Below, piece after piece: positions 45,124 through 57,858 of a DNA stretch of 64,000 nt. Made by a program: the position numbers and the translations under genes. Each line of letters starts with the position of its first letter. Position 1 is the first letter of the stretch. This DNA is from a virus: the UHGV virus genome UHGV-2031204; one strand, given 5' to 3'. The notes beneath the pieces were generated by a model, which ran no database searches, had not been told where the DNA came from, and saw only the letters and a program-made list of their open reading frames with translations.

Positions 45124-45127
45124 CATT

Positions 45128-45167
45128 AACCTCTACCTTCGGGTAGAGGTTACTTCTTTTTATTTTT
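45128..45167 (+). terminator. rho-independent terminator
   Basis: AACCTCTACC-TTCG-GGTAGAGGTT then T-run. Confidence 0.75.
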
Positions 45168-45212
45168 ACAATTTTTAAACATACTGTGAGACTTAAAAGA
45201 AGGAGTGCTATT

Positions 45213-45866
45213 GTGGAACCATTACGCTTAATGACCAGAACGTTACTGATACCTATTCAGGACCTGAAGGTTGGACCGTTGGTCACCTCCAATGGGGAAA
45301 TTGTTGATTTCGTTAAAGAGGAAAAAATTGTTACGGCGGCTTTTCAAGAGACGCTCCATCGCCATTATCGTGCAGTACCTTTATCTGGCAGTCTAGATTG
45401 TCCGGGTGTAGAGGGGAGTACGTCTGCGTTAATAGCGGAGCATTTAGAAAAGAAAGGGTTTGGGGTCGGGAAAGGACAGGTTTTTGTAGACACTGCCACA
45501 CTGAACAAATACCAAAACGACCTAATGTTACAGATAAGGAGATTACTTGCCCGTTATGGTCTTTTCTCGATTAATTGTAAGTTTGACGACGTTCGGATGT
45601 TAGACCACGGTTTTACTACCAGCCTTAAAATCTGTCGTGGTAAAAGATTCATACAGTTTACCTGGTGGGTGCCATCCCTACGAGGTGAGAGAAAAACGGT
45701 GGAAGGGCTGTATGGTTGGGCTTTATGGGCCGAAGTTCCAGTAACGAAACTCGATGCGATTATTCCACAGCATCGAAACGTTCCACTTAGCAGTTTATTT
45801 ACTTCTGGTGGGAACACCACGTGGGATGAATTTGTTAAAAACGTTTTATCGATAGGGGAACAATAA
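45213..45866 (+). CDS. hypothetical protein
   Basis: GTG 45213 seven nt after AAGGAG (longest ORF from 45186). Confidence 0.5.
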   Translation: MEPLRLMTRTLLIPIQDLKVGPLVTSNGEIVDFVKEEKIVTAAFQETLHRHYRAVPLSGSLDCPGVEGSTSALIAEHLEKKGFGVGKGQVFVDTATLNKYQNDLMLQIRRLLARYGLFSINCKFDDVRMLDHGFTTSLKICRGKRFIQFTWWVPSLRGERKTVEGLYGWALWAEVPVTKLDAIIPQHRNVPLSSLFTSGGNTTWDEFVKNVLSIGEQ

Positions 45867-46342
45867 TGCAGCAGTTAGATATTACCGAAGACAAAATTTC
45901 CGCTAAATTTCCTGAATTACGTGAATACGTCAAAGACTTAAATTCGATTCGGGAAACGCCAGTTAGAATCACGTTGGCTGTTGAAGACGATATTACACAT
46001 GGGGTTGCAATCTGGGAGCCGGGGAATCTTATCTATCTGGTAGTGGCCGAAGGTTCTCGTCGTAGCGGTGTAGGTTCCTTTTTACTGAAATACGTTCAAC
46101 TTAATTCAGATCGTCAAATGGTGATGTGTCGTGTCCATCCCTCAAACATAGACGGGCTGTGTTTCTTTTCCAAAAAAGGCTTCCAAATAGACCGATGGTT
46201 TATTGCCAGTGACTCCCGTCGGTATTTTCGTATGACGAACAGTAACGTTGATTCGTCATACGCCCCGCCGGAAGAAGGATATTTGGTGGATTTTATTGAA
46301 AACACCCCCATCTTTCTCTCTGTTGCGGATAAGATTTATTAG
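45866..46342 (+). CDS. GNAT family N-acetyltransferase
   Basis: Motif A-like RRSGVGSFLLKYV and downstream FFSKKGF. Confidence 0.6.
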   Translation: MQQLDITEDKISAKFPELREYVKDLNSIRETPVRITLAVEDDITHGVAIWEPGNLIYLVVAEGSRRSGVGSFLLKYVQLNSDRQMVMCRVHPSNIDGLCFFSKKGFQIDRWFIASDSRRYFRMTNSNVDSSYAPPEEGYLVDFIENTPIFLSVADKIY

Positions 46343-46361
46343 AAACAGTTGAGAGCCCAAA

Positions 46362-46841
46362 ATGATTCGTGTCGAATATGAGACGCGGTGCTTGGAAGGC
46401 AATAAAGCAAAAGTGTTACGTTGCGTTGAAGTTATCCCCGCACACGAGGTTGATTTACGTACAGGTCGTGTTCGGGGAGTTCCTGTAACGATACTACAAC
46501 ATAATCCTTGTTCGCAATTTAAAGGGAAGGCAACTCCAGCAGTACGTTCTCGTCGTCGAGAGGACTTTTCTGATCTCCGCAAATCTTTTACACGGCACTA
46601 CCGACGCAGTAAATGGAAAGTGTTGGTATTAATTTTAGTGGATGATTTTATTAAAGACTTGGTTTGGGAGGAGGTGCTAAAAGAGCGCGGTTTTACACCC
46701 AAACCTTTCTCGTATCACTGGGAACGTTTCAAAAAGAAATATCGTGAAGCGCTATGGTTTTCGCCGAACACACGGAATATGATTCCGCGCTTAGAGTCGA
46801 TGCCATGGCTACGCGATCATCTTGATGAGGTAGACCGATGA
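46362..46841 (+). CDS. hypothetical basic protein
   Basis: 159 aa, R/K-rich; stop overlaps next start. Confidence 0.5.
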   Translation: MIRVEYETRCLEGNKAKVLRCVEVIPAHEVDLRTGRVRGVPVTILQHNPCSQFKGKATPAVRSRRREDFSDLRKSFTRHYRRSKWKVLVLILVDDFIKDLVWEEVLKERGFTPKPFSYHWERFKKKYREALWFSPNTRNMIPRLESMPWLRDHLDEVDR

Positions 46842-47230
46842 AACGAACTGTCATTACCCTATTTCTAACGTTACTTTCATTTTCCGCGTTCGCGGAATTT
46901 AAACCGCACGATATTAGTCGTTTTGAACCTACAGTGCCGGGCGATAAACCCGTCGTTTTTAAATCTACCGACCAGCCAGTTGTTGCAGTTCAAAACGATG
47001 AGTTCGCCACGGTAAATTACGGTAAAACCGAATTGTGCCCGGCAGGTGGCTACTATTTGGTAAACATCAAACGGCGTACATATCAGTTTGTTGATCCGGG
47101 TAGTTGTTCTGCCAGTGTAAAGGTAACGTTAGAAACTGTACCCTACGCAAATAAAAGTATTAATATCCAACGTTTAACTTTCTATGTTGGTGATGAGATC
47201 ACCGCACGGTACCCATTATACGGGTATTAG
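46838..47230 (+). CDS. hypothetical secreted protein (signal peptide)
   Basis: N-terminus MKRTVITLFLTLLSFSAFA with AFA-E cleavage-like site; two Cys. Confidence 0.55.
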   Translation: MKRTVITLFLTLLSFSAFAEFKPHDISRFEPTVPGDKPVVFKSTDQPVVAVQNDEFATVNYGKTELCPAGGYYLVNIKRRTYQFVDPGSCSASVKVTLETVPYANKSINIQRLTFYVGDEITARYPLYGY

Positions 47231-47253
47231 TGATTAACCCCCGCGGAGTTTGT

Positions 47254-47892
47254 ATGTCTTTTGTAATTGATTTTGAAGTTGGTCATAGACAGAACTTACT
47301 CAACCTCGTTAGTTACTGTAATAGCGGCAGTGTACGTAAAAAGCTTTCGGCTGAGAAAGTGGATGTTTCTTTAATAGGCGCACCCACACCGGAAGGTCGG
47401 TATCGGGTAAAGTTAACTAATCGCAACGATATTAACGACGCGGTGATGATATCTTACACGAAACTTCAATTGAATGACTTTCTTGATATTCCCGGTAAGT
47501 ATCTGGATTGGTTCGATTTCGAAAACGGCCAACCTAAAAATTACGATAAATGGGCAGAGTCCGCGAAAGTGTCGGTGGAGAAGATGTGTCAAGACCGTGG
47601 TATGGTTTTGTCGCGTGCATGGGACACGGGCTCGCAGTGTCATGTTGAGTATGATGAGGATCTCGAGCGCTATGTGGTAATTTACGAATGTGATTCGTTT
47701 ATTTATAGCGCACGAAATCGATTTATTCTACCGCTTCATATCGGGCAAATTATTACGAATAAAACCCTTGACGGACTTAATTACAACAACGAACTGAATA
47801 AACGTCCTTTAGGGGGCTTAGATGGTGAGTTGGACGTCTGGATGGGCAAAGCGTTACTCGAGACCGTCGTTTTAAGTGGTTTAGAAGCGTGA
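47254..47892 (+). CDS. hypothetical protein
   Basis: ATG 47254 with GGAG RBS (alternative GTG 47230); terminator follows. Confidence 0.5.
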   Translation: MSFVIDFEVGHRQNLLNLVSYCNSGSVRKKLSAEKVDVSLIGAPTPEGRYRVKLTNRNDINDAVMISYTKLQLNDFLDIPGKYLDWFDFENGQPKNYDKWAESAKVSVEKMCQDRGMVLSRAWDTGSQCHVEYDEDLERYVVIYECDSFIYSARNRFILPLHIGQIITNKTLDGLNYNNELNKRPLGGLDGELDVWMGKALLETVVLSGLEA

Positions 47893-47906
47893 TAACATCA
47901 CCGATA

Positions 47907-47950
47907 GGAGAGAACCCTGAAAAGGTTCTCTCCTGCTTTCTTTTTTTTTC
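47907..47950 (+). terminator. rho-independent terminator
   Basis: GGAGAGAACC/GGTTCTCTCC stem then T-run. Confidence 0.75.
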
Positions 47951-47979
47951 ACTTCACAACTTCAGTATGGAGGTGACAA

Positions 47980-48528
47980 ATGTATAAAATTGCTATTATT
48001 GGTTCTCGAGAAACGCCCGAAGACACGATGCAAGAAATGTTGGATGTGTTGCAACGTGGGTTCAAAATTCTTCGTAATAAACAGCACAGTATCGAAACCC
48101 GATCAGGGGGTTGTTATAAAGGACCAGACCAACTACAGTTTATGTTAGCACGTACTGAACCAGGTCTACATATTTGCTATTTGCCCGACGATCGTAAGTT
48201 GTGGTTACGTAAGTTACATCCGAATGTGGATTTTCGCGTTATTCCACAAGACGTCCGTTATCGTGGGATTGTGGCATCGCTTCACCCTAATCCTGATAAG
48301 CTATCGGAAATAGCTTGGGCGTTGCATGGACGAAACTTAAATATTGTATCCGGTGATTCTTTGGACGATCATGTAGACGCCGTCTATTATTACGCCGAGC
48401 ATGATAAAAAGGGAAATCCAAAAGGGGGTACGGCGATGGGTGTCCGCTACGCACAGTCACTGAACATCCCTTGCTATTATCATGTTACGGATGCATCTAA
48501 GTGGTTAGAAGACCTACGCTTATTATGA
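47980..48528 (+). CDS. DprA/SLOG-like Rossmann-fold protein (DUF2493/DprA-like GSR motif)
   Basis: N-terminal YKIAIIGSRE resembles the DprA VAIVGSR motif; followed by SGG..G.D; assignment tentative. Confidence 0.4.
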   Translation: MYKIAIIGSRETPEDTMQEMLDVLQRGFKILRNKQHSIETRSGGCYKGPDQLQFMLARTEPGLHICYLPDDRKLWLRKLHPNVDFRVIPQDVRYRGIVASLHPNPDKLSEIAWALHGRNLNIVSGDSLDDHVDAVYYYAEHDKKGNPKGGTAMGVRYAQSLNIPCYYHVTDASKWLEDLRLL

Positions 48529-48578
48529 AGTTAGTCAGGGCGGGCTTCTCCCCGCTTTAGCTTAAAATGGGGTAAAGG

Positions 48579-49712
48579 ATGTCAACATTAGATTCCGATT
48601 TAGAAGTCCTTTGCGATGACTACGATCGATTGGTCGCGTTAGAATCGCTTAATGTTAAAGACAACTATCCGGCGGTTGTCGCTATCCGAAAACGGTGGGC
48701 TTTAGATGATGTCCACGTTGCGTTGGAGTCCGCAGCGATGATGGAACGCGCGCAATTTGTTGCGGACACCGAGCCTTACGCAGGGGTAGGTAAAGCGGTC
48801 GCACGCGCGACCGGCAGAGCGGTTAAGGGAGTTGGACGCGTTGCTGGAAAAGCAGCAGTGGCAGGAGCCAAAGCGTCTGGAAAATTCGCAGGTAAACATT
48901 CTAAGCAACTGGCCTTACGTTTTATCGACTTCGCGGAAGCCGCTGGTAAAGAAGTTATTAATGAACTGAAAGAAGCGACGTCCAAAGCATCGTCGTTAGA
49001 GCGGAAGCTACAGAAGTTAGAAGCACGTTTAAGTTTACTCGGTATCAAGGACACCTTAAAACCGGTTGACTGTGACACAGGAAGTTGGACAACCAAAGTT
49101 TGTTTAGAAGACAAGCCTAACGTAAAAGCATGTATTGAGTTCAGTAAGAACCTGAGCGCAATGGATGCGATGGTCAACGAGTATACTGTTAAAACACGTA
49201 CGTTAATCGGTAAGAGCAAGAAAGTTACCGAGAGCGGTTTGGAGAAAGTGGGCCGGTCAACGAACTGGGCGATTAAACGAAGCGCAGGACTGTTCGGTAT
49301 TATCGATCCGTTTAAAACGGTGAAAGCATATCCGTGGCCAGGTAACGTGGTGGTCGTTGAACACGACAGCGGTAAGATTGAGTGGGCGATTGCCCGCGAT
49401 GGTGATTTTGGCCACACAATTAAATCTCTGAACTTGCACGAAATCGGTTCAGCATTCGACGCCGTTAGAAACATTATCCGAGCGTTACGTCAGCGTGGTG
49501 CGAAACGACGTAGTGTTGGGTATACAGGAATTTATGATGAAATTCAACGTATGCGTAAGGAACTTAAGTCGCTTGAAGGGCGGGAGTTACGCGACGCTAC
49601 CGTACGTTATAAAAACGCACTGCGTTTAGAAGATGCGTTTACTACCTCGTTAGTGCGCGTTGCGGAAGGGTTACTGGAATGGTGCAGGTTGTCGCTGATT
49701 GAGGTTAAATAA
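48579..49712 (+). CDS. hypothetical protein with G/A/K-rich repeat region
   Basis: 377 aa; GKAVARATGRAVKGVGRVAGKAAVAGAKASGKFAGK low-complexity block. Confidence 0.55.
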   Translation: MSTLDSDLEVLCDDYDRLVALESLNVKDNYPAVVAIRKRWALDDVHVALESAAMMERAQFVADTEPYAGVGKAVARATGRAVKGVGRVAGKAAVAGAKASGKFAGKHSKQLALRFIDFAEAAGKEVINELKEATSKASSLERKLQKLEARLSLLGIKDTLKPVDCDTGSWTTKVCLEDKPNVKACIEFSKNLSAMDAMVNEYTVKTRTLIGKSKKVTESGLEKVGRSTNWAIKRSAGLFGIIDPFKTVKAYPWPGNVVVVEHDSGKIEWAIARDGDFGHTIKSLNLHEIGSAFDAVRNIIRALRQRGAKRRSVGYTGIYDEIQRMRKELKSLEGRELRDATVRYKNALRLEDAFTTSLVRVAEGLLEWCRLSLIEVK

Positions 49713-50179
49713 TGCGTATTACTATTATTCTCAAACCCGACAGTAAATACGGAAAGTTATACGGCGACCAGGTACTCAAACTGCACAACATGCTGTTCGC
49801 AGAAGAGAAAGTGCGTATTAGTCAGTTAACCGGTCGCGACACGTTCAACCCAATTGAACACTTAGAAGAGATTTGGCCCCAAGATTATCTCTGTGCGTGT
49901 GCCGTGGATGTCAACGAACAACTTCTGGGTTTCATGACGTTCTCAATAGGTTCTTGCTCGAAGGACACATTTGTTTATATTGGGAACTACTATGTGATTC
50001 CCGAAGCGCGTTCTCAGGGGGTAGGGCGTGCGCTTATGGACAAAGTCCGTGAATACGGAAAGTCCAAAGGTTGCGGTTGGATGAGTTTGGATGTGCTGGA
50101 CAACAACGTTAAAGCTATCTCCTTGTATGAGAAAATGGGATTCCGTACTGAATGCAGGGAAATGATAAAGGAAATCTAA
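49712..50179 (+). CDS. GNAT family N-acetyltransferase
   Basis: YYVIPEARSQGVGRALMDKV (motif A Q/R-x-x-G-x-G) and LYEKMGF. Confidence 0.65.
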   Translation: MRITIILKPDSKYGKLYGDQVLKLHNMLFAEEKVRISQLTGRDTFNPIEHLEEIWPQDYLCACAVDVNEQLLGFMTFSIGSCSKDTFVYIGNYYVIPEARSQGVGRALMDKVREYGKSKGCGWMSLDVLDNNVKAISLYEKMGFRTECREMIKEI

Positions 50180-50180
50180 A

Positions 50181-50813
50181 ATGGCTGCAAGATTAGTACC
50201 GTTTCATGACGGGTCTAGATATACTTTTGGTGTAGAGCGTTACGCTGTGGGTTTTCGTCCTGGTTGGAGAGTGGTACGAATCGATAAAGCGTGTTGGTGT
50301 TTACCGACCGGCATTTTTGATTACTTTACACCTGAAGCTTTAACGCGGTTTGTTTCTCTGGGTTCACCCACTCAACGTGCGGCGTGGGAAAAGAATATCC
50401 GTTGCCGTTATTTGGGTAAAACACGAAACGCGACAGTCCGTGGCGTTTATCACGTAAGAAGTCGTTGGTTACACGTCGAGCCGACACACCCACGATGTGC
50501 AGTCACACCCTTTAATGGGGAGTATAAAGGTCAGGTATACACAGGATTGCATTTTGCTTTTCCAGACAACCCCGATCTTAATTACTTTTTAGCCACCCAG
50601 AAAAACGTTACGTTGTCTACGTTCTATAAATACCTTTTGTTCTATCCTGCGTATGTCGTTGCAGAATTTGAACACAAAGCATTTCCTCTGCCATACGGTA
50701 GAGACAGGAGATTAGCAGGATGTTCTATCGAGAACTTCAGCAATACACCGACGCTCTCCGAAAAGCGACCATCGATGCAGACAACAACCTCAGAGATGTC
50801 GTTAGCACTATAG
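50181..50813 (+). CDS. hypothetical protein
   Basis: 210 aa; 3-prime end overlaps next gene by 94 nt. Confidence 0.5.
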   Translation: MAARLVPFHDGSRYTFGVERYAVGFRPGWRVVRIDKACWCLPTGIFDYFTPEALTRFVSLGSPTQRAAWEKNIRCRYLGKTRNATVRGVYHVRSRWLHVEPTHPRCAVTPFNGEYKGQVYTGLHFAFPDNPDLNYFLATQKNVTLSTFYKYLLFYPAYVVAEFEHKAFPLPYGRDRRLAGCSIENFSNTPTLSEKRPSMQTTTSEMSLAL

Positions 50814-51091
50814 AACAGTGTTCGGATGTATTGTATGCGGAAACGATTGAATCACCAACTCACGACGGTGTGAAATCGCTCCAGCTACACGTTTGTAGTA
50901 AACACGGGAGTCTGTCGTTAAACTTCCGTGTAGGTTTAGATTATTACATGGTTCGTAAGAGCTATTTAAGTTGCGACGGCGACCTCTATCCGGTTGTCTG
51001 GAACAACGACTATTCTAAGTTTGTTTATCCGCTTGAAGAACACCGACGCACGGTTTACGAATTTGTGAAAGCTGTTCTTGAGGGGTTCTAA
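50720..51091 (+). CDS. hypothetical protein
   Basis: AGGAGA RBS before ATG 50720, located inside the 3-prime end of the upstream gene. Confidence 0.5.
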   Translation: MFYRELQQYTDALRKATIDADNNLRDVVSTIEQCSDVLYAETIESPTHDGVKSLQLHVCSKHGSLSLNFRVGLDYYMVRKSYLSCDGDLYPVVWNNDYSKFVYPLEEHRRTVYEFVKAVLEGF

Positions 51092-51105
51092 GAGAGGGCC
51101 TTGTA

Positions 51106-51711
51106 ATGTCAGAGATGATTCTCGATTCATTACTATTGATTACAGTATCGTATATCAACAAAACGGGCAAGTTGCCTAAGCGTGGCGTTACTATCGAACG
51201 CGACGGGTTTAAACATCGCTATCCCTTAACGAAAATTTTGGATTTAGCTGCACGTTTAGCCAAGATGCGTCGTCCGAATAGCGAAGCGGCACCGAAATAC
51301 GTTTTACTAGTTTTACAACGCGCGATTTCTGAGGTGCGTCGTAAACGCCGTCGTGCCGCGTTTCGATTTTATCCCAATTCGACGCAACAAGTGGTGGGGG
51401 AATACAACGATATGGTTGTCGATCTTCGTGCAGGTCGGAGTAATGTAACCGGGCTGGCGTATAACCGCCTTAAACGCATTCTGGACGACAGTGATGCTTT
51501 AACCACGCCACAGGAGGGACAAGCGGCTCTAACGCTTCTACGTGGCGCTGAGCTCGTTATTGTGGACACTGCCGTGCAGGCAGCAAGAATGCAACACTAT
51601 CTTGCTAAACAAGGGTTAGTCTTGCTGTGCGTAACGTCTGCACAGGCTGCTAATCTCACCGCACCACAAACGTCAGAAGTGTGGAGTGATCCGATTGTTG
51701 ATCACCAATAA
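51106..51711 (+). CDS. hypothetical protein
   Basis: 201 aa, AGAGGG RBS; followed by terminator. Confidence 0.55.
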   Translation: MSEMILDSLLLITVSYINKTGKLPKRGVTIERDGFKHRYPLTKILDLAARLAKMRRPNSEAAPKYVLLVLQRAISEVRRKRRRAAFRFYPNSTQQVVGEYNDMVVDLRAGRSNVTGLAYNRLKRILDDSDALTTPQEGQAALTLLRGAELVIVDTAVQAARMQHYLAKQGLVLLCVTSAQAANLTAPQTSEVWSDPIVDHQ

Positions 51712-51718
51712 AACCTTA

Positions 51719-51756
51719 CCCCTACTTAACGGTAGGGGCGGGTTTCTTTTTTTACC
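51719..51756 (+). terminator. rho-independent terminator
   Basis: CCCCTAC/GTAGGGG stem then GGGTTTCTTTTTTT. Confidence 0.65.
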
Positions 51757-51769
51757 CTAAATTTTATTA

Positions 51770-51816
51770 CAGATTGATATTATCAATGTGACAACCGTAG
51801 TGAGTCGGTAACTCAC
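51770..51816 (+). promoter_or_regulatory. possible regulatory region with two palindromes
   Basis: TTGATATTATCAA palindrome and GTGAGTCGGTAACTCAC dyad after terminator, before gene 51842. Confidence 0.3.
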
Positions 51817-51841
51817 CAATTTAAAAAAAGAGAGATAAATT

Positions 51842-52456
51842 ATGGAAATTAAGCGCTTTGAACTCCCTAACAACTACACTTTAGTTGAAGTTGCTGAAAA
51901 TGAAATTGGCGAAAATAGAAAGAATGCGGGCTTTGTCTCGAAAAATTCGCTTTTGATTTATGAAGGTGAGAAATTAAAGTATACCGTCGGTCATCTCTTC
52001 ACTGAAAATGGAAAACTCTGGGAATCGCAGTACGAAAGACTGTTGTCGAAATTCCGTTCCCAATTATTGCTGAGATACCTTCGCGATGAGGAAGACTATA
52101 AACTCTTTGTAACAAAAGAACAACTATTGGCTGATAAATATCCCGCTTATACTGCATGTTTAGCAGCTCTTAAATTGGTCGGCGGTTATGAGGAGTTCGT
52201 GGCGGGCAGTAGCAATTTTGCTATCTCACGACACAGAGATCGCGTCATCATCAAAGATTTTGAGGTGACCCATATACGTACTGTCACGCTCAGCCTCAAG
52301 CATCCTGAAAAGGTGAGTATCGATGACCGGTACGTCATTGCAAACAAGGCCATTTCTTTTACAGCGAAATACCATACCGTCGGTTACCCTACGAGTAAGG
52401 AAGTGTACGAAGAACGTAACCTTGAGAGCTTAATTTCCACATATTTTGAATTGTAA
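51842..52456 (+). CDS. hypothetical protein
   Basis: 204 aa, AGAGAG RBS; preceded by two palindromes (51770-51816). Confidence 0.55.
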   Translation: MEIKRFELPNNYTLVEVAENEIGENRKNAGFVSKNSLLIYEGEKLKYTVGHLFTENGKLWESQYERLLSKFRSQLLLRYLRDEEDYKLFVTKEQLLADKYPAYTACLAALKLVGGYEEFVAGSSNFAISRHRDRVIIKDFEVTHIRTVTLSLKHPEKVSIDDRYVIANKAISFTAKYHTVGYPTSKEVYEERNLESLISTYFEL

Positions 52457-52464
52457 GTAAAACT

Positions 52465-52490
52465 AAGGGGTGTTTTTTACACCCCTTTTA
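52465..52490 (+). terminator. possible terminator (weak T tail)
   Basis: AAGGGGTG/CACCCCTT stem with short T-run. Confidence 0.4.
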
Positions 52491-52518
52491 TCTAAAAGCG
52501 CGTAAAGGTAAAACAATA

Positions 52519-53142
52519 ATGCTTAAGACCGTGTCTATTGATGGTCCTGATTTTTCTGGGAAATCAACGTTGTGTAAAATGGTAAAAGCGATGTTGGAGT
52601 CCGCAGGATTAAAAGTGTGTATTCGGAACCATCCGACGTCTGAAACCGAGGCGGGTATTCGTGCACGTAGCTTGGTTGTACAGTCTGCTTCGAAAACAAA
52701 AATTGCTGAAGCAATGTGTGATGACTTCCTTCACACGTTAGACCATGTTGTTGACGAGTACGATGTTGTTATTTTCGATCGCTTCTGCCCTTCAACGATT
52801 GTTTATCAGGGGACAGATGGCAAGGACGTGGTTTTCCAACGTAAGCTAACTCGTCATTTCCACGCACCCGACCTTTATGTTTGGACAGATGTTGATTACC
52901 CAACAGCGTTAGCGCGATTTAAGAAACGTGTAGAAGAACAAGGTAAGAATTGGGACGATGAGGTACTTACGGTTAAGTACCTAAAGGACAACCAATCTTG
53001 GGATGGCTTACGCGACCATTATCGTTTCGCGCATCACATCTTAACAGAAGGTGGTTGTCTTCACGCATTATTACCAGTAACGCAGAATGACGATTACCGT
53101 TTGAAAGCCGCTGAGATTGTTACGCACATTTTAGCAAACTAA
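52519..53142 (+). CDS. tmk: thymidylate kinase-like nucleoside monophosphate kinase
   Basis: P-loop IDGPDFSGKST, DRF...YQG motif resembling Tmk DR...AYQG. Confidence 0.6.
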   Translation: MLKTVSIDGPDFSGKSTLCKMVKAMLESAGLKVCIRNHPTSETEAGIRARSLVVQSASKTKIAEAMCDDFLHTLDHVVDEYDVVIFDRFCPSTIVYQGTDGKDVVFQRKLTRHFHAPDLYVWTDVDYPTALARFKKRVEEQGKNWDDEVLTVKYLKDNQSWDGLRDHYRFAHHILTEGGCLHALLPVTQNDDYRLKAAEIVTHILAN

Positions 53143-54327: not shown

Positions 54328-54362
54328 GGGGAACTTCGGTTCCCCTTTCTTTTTTTGTTTTT
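54328..54362 (+). terminator. rho-independent terminator
   Basis: GGGGAAC-TTCG-GTTCCCC then T-run. Confidence 0.75.
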
Positions 54363-54410
54363 ACAGCTTTAGCGTATTGTTTTGAGACGACCTTTTAAGG
54401 AGTAATTAAC

Positions 54411-55409
54411 ATGGCTTTTAGGATGATTATAAAACATACCGCCACAGATTTAACAGTAGGTCGGTTAGCACGTAGAGATATTCGCAACCCTCAACTTCAG
54501 GCATGTTTATCGGGCCCTAACGGTGCTGTGATTCGTGAGGCGTTGTGCAATAGTGAACTGAATACGTTCTCTTTACAAAAAGGAAAAACAATTCAAGGGT
54601 TTATCATCACAAAACACATTTACGGTGACCCAACGTTACACTGCTTGTATATGCATGAAATTGTACCGGGCTGTTTGAACAAACTGAACCTACTATTGGT
54701 ACTCGACTATACCGGTTTTACGTATCTTAATCGAATCGCCAGTGGTGTAGAAGAAATCGCCGAACTTAATGACTTAGGATTTAAACACACCCGCACTACG
54801 TACCGTTTAGGTACACGCTCGTTGTTGGATATCGCTCTACCAACAAACGTGAAGAACGTCTCCGGCGATTTTTATAAAGAGTTAACCGCCGCACAACGCG
54901 AACAGCTTATGTTGCTTTTGGGTACGAGCGTCGTTGAAAACATCAACGCTGACCCTGTGGGCCGCACACGACAAATAATGCCGCAAGTCGAAACGTTGGT
55001 GGAGCTAGTACGCCACGTCAACCACCACACTTACGTTTGGATGGACGCTAACGATGTTGTGGGTGTGGTGCAAGTTAAATTGCGTAATCTTAACGAGTGT
55101 GAATTAAAAGCCATTGCGGTAAATGAAACACATCGTGGTCGTGGTATCGGACGGACTTTGTTGTATCGTGCTCTACAGATTGCTTCGACAACAGCGGCAC
55201 CATTAGAGATAGGGTGTTTCAATAACAACGCACCGTTTAGACACTTGGCCGTCGATTTATTTAAATTTCGACCTTTCGAATACGAATTTGTTTTAGTGCG
55301 CGACGAAAACGTCGTCAGTTGGGAGCGTCAGAAAAATCATGTCAAGTTGGTGTTAGACGACGAAGTGTCATCGTTACAAGGCGGATATAATGCGGAAACC
55401 AATTATTAA
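54411..55409 (+). CDS. GNAT acetyltransferase-domain protein (C-terminal GNAT, N-terminal unknown domain)
   Basis: C-terminal LKAIAVNETHRGRGIGRTLLYRAL motif A-like block. Confidence 0.5.
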   Translation: MAFRMIIKHTATDLTVGRLARRDIRNPQLQACLSGPNGAVIREALCNSELNTFSLQKGKTIQGFIITKHIYGDPTLHCLYMHEIVPGCLNKLNLLLVLDYTGFTYLNRIASGVEEIAELNDLGFKHTRTTYRLGTRSLLDIALPTNVKNVSGDFYKELTAAQREQLMLLLGTSVVENINADPVGRTRQIMPQVETLVELVRHVNHHTYVWMDANDVVGVVQVKLRNLNECELKAIAVNETHRGRGIGRTLLYRALQIASTTAAPLEIGCFNNNAPFRHLAVDLFKFRPFEYEFVLVRDENVVSWERQKNHVKLVLDDEVSSLQGGYNAETNY

Positions 55410-57765: not shown

Positions 57766-57802
57766 CCCTCTCTCCGTTTGGAGAGAGGGAGTATTTATTT
57801 TT
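57766..57802 (+). terminator. rho-independent terminator
   Basis: CCCTCTCTCC-GTTT-GGAGAGAGGG then T-rich run; identical stem at 58813-58836. Confidence 0.7.
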
Positions 57803-57858
57803 ACGCTTTCGTGTCTAATTATGCACACGTAAACAAAATTAATTGAGGAACAGCTTAA

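Follow-up and report, generated by a model that had tools for sequence, protein, structure and literature searches.

An SPN3US-type gene neighbourhood encoding a DprA-type SLOG protein, an internal head protein and a GNAT acetyltransferase

Three neighbouring genes in virus genome UHGV-2031204 raise the question of whether they act together or merely lie side by side. The initial annotation proposed that they form one module, consisting of a DprA/SLOG-like protein, an unknown protein rich in glycine, alanine and lysine, and a GNAT, and that this module could be a countermeasure linked to nucleotide signals or ssDNA binding. We analysed these genes within the whole 64,000-nucleotide stretch, referred to here as the window, and against related phage genomes.

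Gene calls, terminators and gene order

The features of the region are as follows.

47905-47950, plus strand: intrinsic terminator, a 12-bp stem (47905-47935) and then a T-run; closes the upstream gene
47980-48528, plus strand: P1, 182 aa, SLOG (Rossmann) domain protein of the DprA type, ortholog of SPN3US gp92
48579-49712, plus strand: P2, 377 aa, phiKZ-type internal head protein, ortholog of SPN3US gp94
49712-50179, plus strand: P3, 155 aa, GNAT acetyltransferase, ortholog of SPN3US gp95
50181-50813, plus strand: gp96-like gene
50720-51091, plus strand: gp97-like gene; gp97 of SPN3US is a head protein
51106-51711, plus strand: gp98-like gene
51719-51738, plus strand: the next strong terminator-like hairpin, an 8-bp stem with 5 G-C pairs and then a T-run

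The three open reading frames are present on the plus strand as originally described. Substitutions relative to two related contigs concentrate at the third codon position of the plus frame (for P2 against L015, the counts by codon position are 36/16/131), and we therefore regard P1, P2 and P3 as real genes. An antisense open reading frame at 48776-49474 (232 aa) was considered as a gene and rejected, because the substitution pattern tracks the plus frame. The GNAT gene had been described as starting at an ATGA overlap. The sequence at the P2/P3 junction (...AAATAATGCG) corrects this: the P2 stop TAA (49710-49712) and the P3 start ATG (49712-49714) have one base in common, giving a TAATG overlap.

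The terminator reported upstream of P1 is indeed a strong one. Its fold (47905-47935) has an energy of -19.3 kcal/mol and a z-score of -4.11, with none of 200 shuffled sequences folding equally well, and the gene that it follows is an ortholog of the SPN3US tail protein gp91. On the other side, the same-strand genes continue, the first of them beginning at 50181, 2 nt beyond the GNAT stop. A terminator scan up to 51719 revealed no convincing terminator directly after the GNAT gene; the two terminator-like matches in this interval are weak (3 G-C pairs) and lie at approximately 50291-50314, inside the next gene. With a terminator before P1 and none convincing after P3, the trio is not a delimited transcription unit, and the boundary formerly placed at the GNAT gene has to be given up; the hairpin at 51719-51738 likely ends the gene run that begins at P1. 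A hairpin between P1 and P2 (48538-48557) was rejected as a terminator, as it folds like shuffled sequence (z 0.07). Phages of the phiKZ type use their own RNA polymerases, and the same is expected of this phage. For this reason, and because sigma-70-like promoter matches fall below chance expectation (8 observed versus 13.9 expected), we consider these matches uninformative.

Protein sequence comparison shows that the window belongs to a new relative of jumbo phage SPN3US (45-60% amino-acid identity). About 14 consecutive genes (open reading frames 45186-53142) are collinear, one-to-one counterparts of SPN3US gp87-gp100. P1, P2 and P3 share 58%, 59% and 47% identity with gp92, gp94 and gp95 of SPN3US (Seoulvirus), in the same order and orientation. 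This gene order also occurs in SPLA3, Asesino, phiEaH2, Caitlin and two metagenomic relatives; SPN3US is a Salmonella phage, while phiEaH2, Asesino and Caitlin are Erwinia phages. A relative at 97% identity is represented by contig SRR29133897_244. A megablast search of the region returned no DNA match of approximately 85% identity or more in the phage collection, which indicates a new lineage; relatives came only from protein searches and from a search for distant DNA similarity. The collinearity has two local differences. The small gene gp93, which in SPN3US separates the DprA-like and internal head protein genes, is absent here and likewise from the closest metagenomic relatives, and the place of gp99 is taken by an unrelated open reading frame (51842-52456). 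BLAST gave no match to a paralog of P1, P2 or P3 elsewhere in the window. The window also holds two further GNATs, which are too distant from P3 for BLASTP.

Family-level names for all three proteins already exist in RefSeq and PHROGs. We interpret the region as a slice of the conserved SPN3US-type (phiKZ-related) gene order that holds two unrelated functions, and we assign this explanation as a whole a probability of about 0.72.

The DprA-type SLOG protein

The first protein was originally singled out by an IAIIGSRE motif, which is present in its N-terminus (MYKIAIIGSRE), with G8, S9 and R10 almost invariant across 25 homologs. The conserved motifs of P1 (G8-S9-R10, S42-G-G-x-x-x-G48-x-D50, R118-N119 and G149-G150-T151) vary little or not at all, and they align to the GSR, SGLARGID, RRN and SGS motifs of E. 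coli Smf. When the P1 family was aligned to the single E. coli Smf sequence using hhalign, the motifs fell in the right register with a weak score (E 0.038), in an alignment spanning only residues 107-265 of the 374 of Smf. The AF2 model (pLDDT 94.7) has a predicted three-layer alpha/beta, Rossmann-like SLOG fold. This model identifies P1 as a SLOG Rossmann domain, and DprA proteins are its closest relatives of known structure. The SLOG/DprA guess is thereby borne out and, because P1 adopts a DprA-near SLOG fold, the fold gives no ground for discarding the original proposal.

Profile searches place P1 outside existing models. There was no Pfam match at E<=0.1, so that P1 stays below the PF02481 threshold, and likewise no NCBIfam match. 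Relatives of P1 score 12-19 bits against PF02481 (cut-off 29.6), and one of them, P0084, alone passes, at 33.4 bits. Searches of PDB sequences with P1 or with the 25-sequence profile returned chance matches only (ETV6 fusions, SEL1, OmpA). The family to which P1 belongs comprises 1648 representative clusters, is without a Pfam model, and occurs in many large virulent phages. The Rossmann domain and one helical insertion (about 50 residues, approximately 70-125) fill all 182 aa. Compared with bacterial DprA/Smf (PF02481; PDB 3maj, 4ljk, 3uqz) and with the ShosA antitoxin (8zva), P1 therefore corresponds to the Rossmann part only; the N-terminal SAM domain and the C-terminal winged-helix DML1 domain of canonical DprA are both absent.

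Some P1 relatives are fused to SF1 helicases, to AlkB-like and NADAR domains, or occur in giant proteins. The SF1 helicase and AlkB-like/NADAR fusions are only suggestive of the ssDNA binding, dimerisation and RecA loading that mark canonical DprA. The SPN3US ortholog gp92 is absent from all SPN3US virion mass-spectrometry tables. P1 would thus be a small cytoplasmic protein outside the virion that, by analogy with DprA, most likely binds ssDNA or a nucleotide ligand through its GSR/SGxxxGxD/RN/GGT pocket; such binding would serve phage DNA replication or recombination.

A different possibility is that P1, separately from P2 and P3, is a stand-alone SLOG domain with an anti-defence role: it would either bind or hydrolyse a molecule derived from nucleotides, or imitate the DprA-like antitoxin found in systems such as ShosTA and PsyrTA. 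Several observations are consistent with this. A phage protein annotated as Smf/DprA, ORF83, has been reported to evade type III Avs; PADLOC gives weak ShosA and PsyrA matches for distant relatives of P1; one relative carries the NADAR fusion; and the family is common in large virulent phages, in variable contexts. However, P1 carries K-G-G-T-A-M-G-V, without the glutamate, in place of the catalytic PGGxGTxxE of LOG phosphoribohydrolases. It also matches the ThsA SLOG domain more weakly than it does DprA, it has no PADLOC match of its own, and the SF1 helicase and AlkB-like fusions point away from a soluble signal and towards nucleic acid. We therefore consider an anti-defence role for P1 unlikely, and favour the DprA-like nucleic-acid or nucleotide-binding role given above.

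The internal head protein and the acetyltransferase beside it

The second gene does not encode an unknown protein, as first thought, but a phiKZ-type internal head protein. P2 matches PHROG 2497 over residues 1-373 (7.1e-74) and, marginally, PF12699 over residues 50-367 (28.2 bits, cut-off 27), and its best fold match is phiKZ gp86, an inner-capsid protein. The AF2 model, of moderate confidence (pLDDT 69.6), consists of a helix-rich body, with residues 45-103 below a pLDDT of 50 and thus predicted to be disordered. Three features of P2 are of particular relevance here.

48633-48647, plus strand: V-A-L-E↓S, residues 19-23, candidate prohead-protease site after E22
48717-48731, plus strand: V-A-L-E↓S, residues 47-51, candidate prohead-protease site after E50
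48774-48908, plus strand: basic K/R/G/A-rich segment, residues 66-110, predicted to be disordered (10 K/R, 0 D/E, 9 G, 12 A)

The composition of the basic segment is retained in 15 of 19 homologs, but its sequence is not. This is the stretch that had been read as a lysine/glycine/alanine repeat: the richness in these residues stands, whereas the repeat does not, as TRF found no tandem repeat in the DNA beneath it and the stretch is of low complexity.

The logo of the SPN3US gp245 protease was previously described as A-X-E, with V at P4 and S at P1', and both V-A-L-E↓S sites in P2 fit it. The E22 site is conserved in 17 of the 19 homologs and E50 is invariant in all of them; the two correspond to the candidate cleavages at ALE-22 and ARE-51 previously proposed for SPN3US gp94. 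With a pI of 4.4, the first 50 residues form an acidic N-terminus. By these predicted sites, P2 would have an N-terminal propeptide with prohead-protease sites. SPN3US gp94 has been found in heads by mass spectrometry, with an average of 48 PSM in virions and 34 in tailless heads, and in heads it is far scarcer (78 PSM) than gp53 and gp54 (about 5000). The virion location of P2 and P3 and the proposed cleavage of P2 are carried over from the SPN3US orthologs, at 47-59% identity.

The phiKZ internal head and inner-body proteins of PF12699 (gp92-95, gp97, gp162, gp163) are distant sequence kin of P2. P2 has in common with them the family match, the helix-rich body and an N-terminal propeptide with S/A-X-E-type sites. 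The phiKZ proteins form a paralog array, whose members are cleaved and packaged and of which several are injected, whereas P2 is single-copy in the window. The basic K/R/G/A segment was observed among SPN3US-type orthologs, the set examined. Together, these features suggest that P2 is synthesised as a precursor whose N-terminus is an acidic targeting peptide, which the prohead protease probably removes by cutting at V-A-L-E22↓S and/or V-A-L-E50↓S. Mature P2 would then start with a disordered, strongly basic segment suited to touch packaged DNA, followed by a helical body resembling phiKZ inner-capsid and inner-body proteins.

For the third gene, the GNAT assignment is confirmed by PF00583 (69.1 bits, cut-off 20.7, 5.3e-19), and P3 also matches PHROG 3810 (1.8e-43). 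Its acetyl-CoA motif is R100-S-Q-G103-V-G105, with R100, G103 and the surrounding RSQGVG conserved. Among PDB sequences, P3 matches human diamine acetyltransferase 2 best (SSAT2; 2bei, 3.6e-10), and the solved sequences nearest to it are acetyltransferases of diamines, polyamines and thialysine. The NCBIfam models for spermidine N-acetyltransferase score 26.6 bits against a cut-off of 250.

Experimental data from earlier work bear on two aspects of P3. First, its positional orthologs in phiEaH2 (YP_007237670, 49% identity) and Caitlin (YP_009292176, 46% identity) have spermidine N-acetyltransferase activity in vivo, in E. coli delta-speG, while the SPN3US ortholog yielded no N-acetylspermidine in the same assay. 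Second, the head of SPN3US contains gp95, whose N-terminus is intact; cellular SpeG and SSAT, by contrast, are not capsid parts. Head location and activity are thus known from different proteins. We propose that P3 would be packaged uncleaved in the head, as its SPN3US ortholog is, and is probably delivered into the cell along with the DNA; among possible activities, N-acetylating spermidine or other diamines has the best support, two orthologs being active and a third not. Together with the product of the gp97-like downstream gene, P2 and P3 would make up a small cluster of head-internal proteins. As proposed, this arrangement resembles the logic of T4, in which the prohead protease removes a capsid-targeting propeptide, basic proteins are packaged alongside the DNA, and an enzyme that modifies the host travels in with the genome. 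P2 and P3 have no sequence kinship with the T4 internal proteins IPI-III and Alt, however, and the GNAT ortholog is packaged without cleavage.

Alternatively, P3 could be a protein lysine or N-terminal acetyltransferase that acts either on host proteins after ejection, like T4 Alt and phiKMV Rac, or on the lysine-rich segment of P2. The presence of the SPN3US ortholog in the head without spermidine N-acetyltransferase activity would accord with this, as would the RimI model being the best NCBIfam match (50 bits, far under the cut-off of 86), the coupling of the P3 start to the stop of a lysine-rich head protein gene in an adjacency kept across the clade, and the Rac-like GNATs predicted in the jumbo-phage literature to modify host proteins. 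Two of the three tested orthologs acetylate spermidine in vivo, though, and the closest solved sequences are the small-amine enzymes named above, which makes protein acetylation quite improbable and leaves polyamine acetylation as the preferred activity.

It is also conceivable, albeit very doubtful, that P2 and P3 constitute a capsid-packaged "basic protein plus acetyltransferase" device, with the GNAT ejected along with the genome and acting on spermidine or on the P2 segment. Acetylation of spermidine locally at the entry site may strip DNA or host nucleases of polyamines ahead of any phage gene expression; acetylation of the lysine-rich disordered segment of P2 may detach P2 from the DNA, much as histone acetylation does.

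Gene distribution and the meaning of the neighbourhood

The distribution of the three genes differs. Homologs of P1 occur in 242 phage records, those of P2 in 62 and those of P3 in 63. In CR5 (Derbicusvirus), six genes lie between P1 and P2, and in Derbicus the matches to the two are approximately 4.9 kb apart. P1 homologs in four distant phages have neither an internal head protein nor a GNAT as neighbour, and in OBP and a Fusobacterium phage, neither an internal head protein gene nor a SLOG gene neighbours the GNAT relatives. All three genes co-occur only within a single clade, whose genomes share a collinear run of about 14 consecutive genes; adjacency of the trio does not extend beyond this generally syntenic clade. 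Only the P2-P3 pair persists clade-wide, being directly adjacent in every relative examined, CR5 included. Because the record counts differ and only this pairing persists, a three-gene countermeasure module is unsupported.

The original reading of the trio as one module against nucleotide-signal (cyclic-nucleotide or cADPR) or ssDNA-sensing defence drew on three neighbouring genes on one strand behind a terminator, and published comparative work has proposed that viral SLOG domains process ADPr-derived signals; but with unequal distribution, P2 and P3 orthologs in heads and the P1 ortholog missing from the virion tables, no PADLOC match for P1, P2 or P3, a gene run that continues past the GNAT, and nothing found that ties the trio to nucleotide-signal defence, this reading is hardly credible and already largely refuted by gene distribution.

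These data indicate that what looked like a module is simply the usual conserved gene order in SPN3US-type jumbo phages. As a member of a large family beyond Pfam models, the stand-alone SLOG protein of the DprA type may interest specialists. For the neighbouring pair, two published studies can be combined: in SPN3US the GNAT encoded beside the internal head protein belongs to the head, and orthologs of this GNAT acetylate spermidine. The head location of gp95 and the spermidine N-acetyltransferase activity of its orthologs appear not to have been linked previously in the literature. Since these two observations are now joined, the idea of an injected polyamine acetyltransferase becomes directly testable.

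Genes of the locus and their orthologs

In protein-level searches the window groups with the SPN3US-type jumbo phages (Seoulvirus, Erskinevirus, Machinavirus and Derbicusvirus), whose matched members infect Salmonella, Erwinia, Cronobacter and Proteus; no DNA match to the region of at least ~85% identity was found in the phage collection. ORFs across 45186-53142 pair one to one with SPN3US gp87-gp100 as orthologs (23-65% identity); gp93 and gp99 alone have no counterpart. The annotated gene order is identical in SPLA3, Asesino, SPN3US, phiEaH2 and Caitlin, and two metagenomic relatives also keep it. Given this collinearity, the three ORFs of interest, which are present as initially annotated, are therefore orthologs of gp92, gp94 and gp95.

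45866-46342: GNAT gene, gp88 ortholog, PHROG 7861
47230-47892: gp91 ortholog (a tail protein in SPN3US)
47980-48528, + strand: P1, ORF of 182 aa, DprA-like protein, gp92 ortholog
48579-49712, + strand: P2, ORF of 377 aa, internal head protein, gp94 ortholog
49712-50179, + strand: P3, ORF of 155 aa, GNAT, gp95 ortholog, PHROG 3810
50720-51091, + strand: gp97 ortholog (a head protein in SPN3US)
51719-51738, + strand: next strong terminator (hairpin terminator search)
54411-55409: GNAT gene, gp104 ortholog, PHROG 8663

We compared the locus with two related metagenomic contigs, L017 (97% related) and L015 (84-92% related). Substitutions concentrate at the third codon position of the + frame against both (by codon position, 36/16/131 for P2 against L015, listed with 5/3/28 for P3), indicating that P1, P2 and P3 are real genes. 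A 232-aa antisense ORF inside P2 (48776-49474, - strand) was excluded because the substitution pattern fits the + frame only; the A/G/K-rich coding composition accounts for it.

The terminator claimed upstream of P1 is genuine, and it is strong (47905-47935 followed by a T-run, -19.3 kcal/mol, z -4.1). The P2/P3 junction, previously read as an ATGA overlap, is TAATG with one shared base. Nor does the GNAT gene end the unit, since the next gene begins at 50181, 2 nt past the P3 stop, and up to 51719 the search gave just two weak terminator-like matches, both within that next gene.

Several further features were observed. The ORFs at 50181-50813 and 50720-51091 share 94 nt, read in different frames, and SPN3US gp96/gp97 are annotated with the same kind of overlap (55 nt). 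SPN3US, Asesino and Caitlin carry the 90-aa gp93 between the DprA-like and internal head protein genes; it is missing here (48529-48578) and likewise from L015 and L017, the closest relatives. An ORF at 51842-52456 (204 aa), in the place of gp99, matches nothing in PHROG, Pfam or SPN3US. At 45127-45152 a perfect 11-bp hairpin is scored as a terminator in either orientation, yet all adjoining genes run on the + strand. After several hairpin terminators a T-run leads into TTTTTAC(A/G/C) (45153-45175, 47941-47957, 51739-51760, 54350-54365 and 57795-57805); 5' of P1, the sequence reads TTTTTTTTTCACTTCAC. Placed directly 3' of terminators, this motif may be a promoter element for a phage RNA polymerase.

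A stand-alone SLOG protein of the DprA clade

P1 matched nothing in Pfam, NCBIfam or PDB sequences, and matched PHROG 768, "DprA-like DNA recombination-mediator protein", at 3.9e-44. DprA structures are among its closest in structural comparison, in agreement with the DprA/SLOG-like fold originally suggested: scores were 13.1 for DprA (3maj), 12.4 for the DprA-like antitoxin ShosA (8zva), 12.1 for H. pylori DprA (4ljk, 22% identity), 12.0 for Moco-carrier protein, 11.8 for both YpsA and TM1055, 11.3 for S. pneumoniae DprA (3uqz) and about 10 for LOG enzymes. Foldseek agreed weakly, placing P1 in the same superfamily. Invariant family motifs (G8-S9-R10, S42-G43...G48-x-D50, H116-x-R118-N119 and G149-G150-T151) pair with GSR, SGLARGID, RRN and SGS of E. 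coli Smf, albeit weakly (E 0.038). P1 has no LOG catalytic motif (PGGxGTxxE), and neither the SAM nor the winged-helix domain of full DprA is present. It is thus a SLOG domain of the DprA clade that stands alone, in a family outside Pfam's models.

Searching 1.84 billion representative proteins with a profile gave 1648 relatives. One, P0084, clearly belongs to the family (LHPAPGKL, HGRN, KGGTAMA) and exceeds the PF02481 cut-off; other relatives match PF02481 below threshold. Roughly one in four of the top-ranking 150 among the 1648 are long fusion proteins, with partners that include an SF1 (RecD/PIF1-like) helicase and DUF7831 (P0100, P0102, P0115, P0138) or, in P0111, an AlkB-like oxygenase and NADAR. 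The domain also occurs at the extreme C-terminus of 4000-5200-aa giants (P0108, P0132, P0174 and others), two of which gave zero matches when scanned with Pfam.

The comparative literature on jumbo phages describes a conserved DprA/Smf copy, suggested to be an additional ssDNA-binding protein, and gp92 is missing from all SPN3US virion mass-spectrometry tables. P1 most likely acts in the cytoplasm or phage nucleus as a DprA-like binder of ssDNA (or a nucleotide); we put the probability of an ssDNA-linked role at about one half. The SLOG domain of ThsA scored 8.8 against P1, and a role as an anti-defence ligand binder appears unlikely.

An internal head protein and its neighboring acetyltransferase

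P2, initially described as unknown, is an internal head protein, identified by PHROG 2497 (7.1e-74) and Pfam PF12699 (phiKZ_IP; 28.2 bits, cut-off 27). SPN3US mass spectrometry assigned gp94 to the head, and its authors proposed that the prohead protease gp245 cuts the protein at ALE-22, ARE-51 and/or AME-60. In the logo of gp245, A-X-E comes with a preference for V at P4 and S at P1'; two candidate sites in P2, V-A-L-E22|S and V-A-L-E50|S, fit it exactly, and both are kept across 19 homologs. The protein starts with an acidic stretch of 50 residues (pI 4.4). Within residues 66-110 there are 10 K/R, 0 D/E, 9 G and 12 A, a composition kept in 15 of 19 homologs while the sequence itself is not; the K/G/A "repeat" claimed here is a compositional bias, the DNA having no tandem repeat. 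Residues 45-103 are predicted to be disordered (pLDDT < 50, AF2 model).

P3 is a clear GNAT with an acetyl-CoA motif, as initially annotated. Among proteins of solved structure, those nearest to it in sequence are human diamine acetyltransferase 2 (3.6e-10), a polyamine acetyltransferase and thialysine acetyltransferases. In E. coli delta-speG, N-acetylspermidine was formed with two positional orthologs, YP_007237670 of phiEaH2 (49% identity) and YP_009292176 of Caitlin (46%), whereas SPN3US YP_009153389 yielded none. The SPN3US ortholog, gp95, is a head protein (mean 41 PSM in virions, 32 PSM in tailless heads) with an intact N-terminus and no protease motif. Three GNAT genes of different PHROG families lie within a 9-kb stretch; of their SPN3US orthologs gp88, gp95 and gp104, the sole virion protein is gp95, gp104 being a trace, non-virion detection.

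We infer the following sequence of events. The acidic propeptide would direct P2 to the prohead, where it would be trimmed at E22 and/or E50, so that it would come to reside in the head, the basic tail lying on DNA. P3 would be packaged along with P2, probably be delivered with the genome, and then acetylate polyamines or another amine substrate.

Association of the three genes

The three genes do not form the single module that had been proposed. P1 is far more widespread (homologs in 242 phage records, versus 62 for P2 and 63 for P3). Its carriers include Acinetobacter, Klebsiella and Aeromonas phages, some T4-like or Vequintavirinae. In four distant phages the genes around it include those for NTP pyrophosphohydrolase, PhoH, RNA ligase and MazG-like proteins; internal head protein and GNAT genes are never among them. 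P1 and P2 lie six genes (about 4.9 kb) apart in CR5, and their matches about 4.9 kb apart in Derbicus. Distant GNAT relatives in OBP and Fusobacterium phages have neither a P1-type nor a P2-type partner. Only P2 and P3 are directly adjacent throughout the clade, overlapping by 1 to 29 nt or separated by at most 51 nt. As further observations, an RNA ligase gene is adjacent or close to the DprA-like gene in several ~170-230 kb phages, including Aeromonas phage G2 (L010; also H141, H147 and H156), and the DprA-like gene adjoins PhoH in SSE121; one of the six intervening CR5 genes is PhoH-like.

P1, P2 and P3 add new, diverged members to families that RefSeq and PHROGs already name, and to that extent the finding is ordinary. 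That the spermidine-acetyltransferase-type GNAT is itself a capsid component was not found stated in the literature examined. A GNAT as capsid component makes testable both the idea of an injected polyamine acetyltransferase and acetylation of the lysine-rich head protein.
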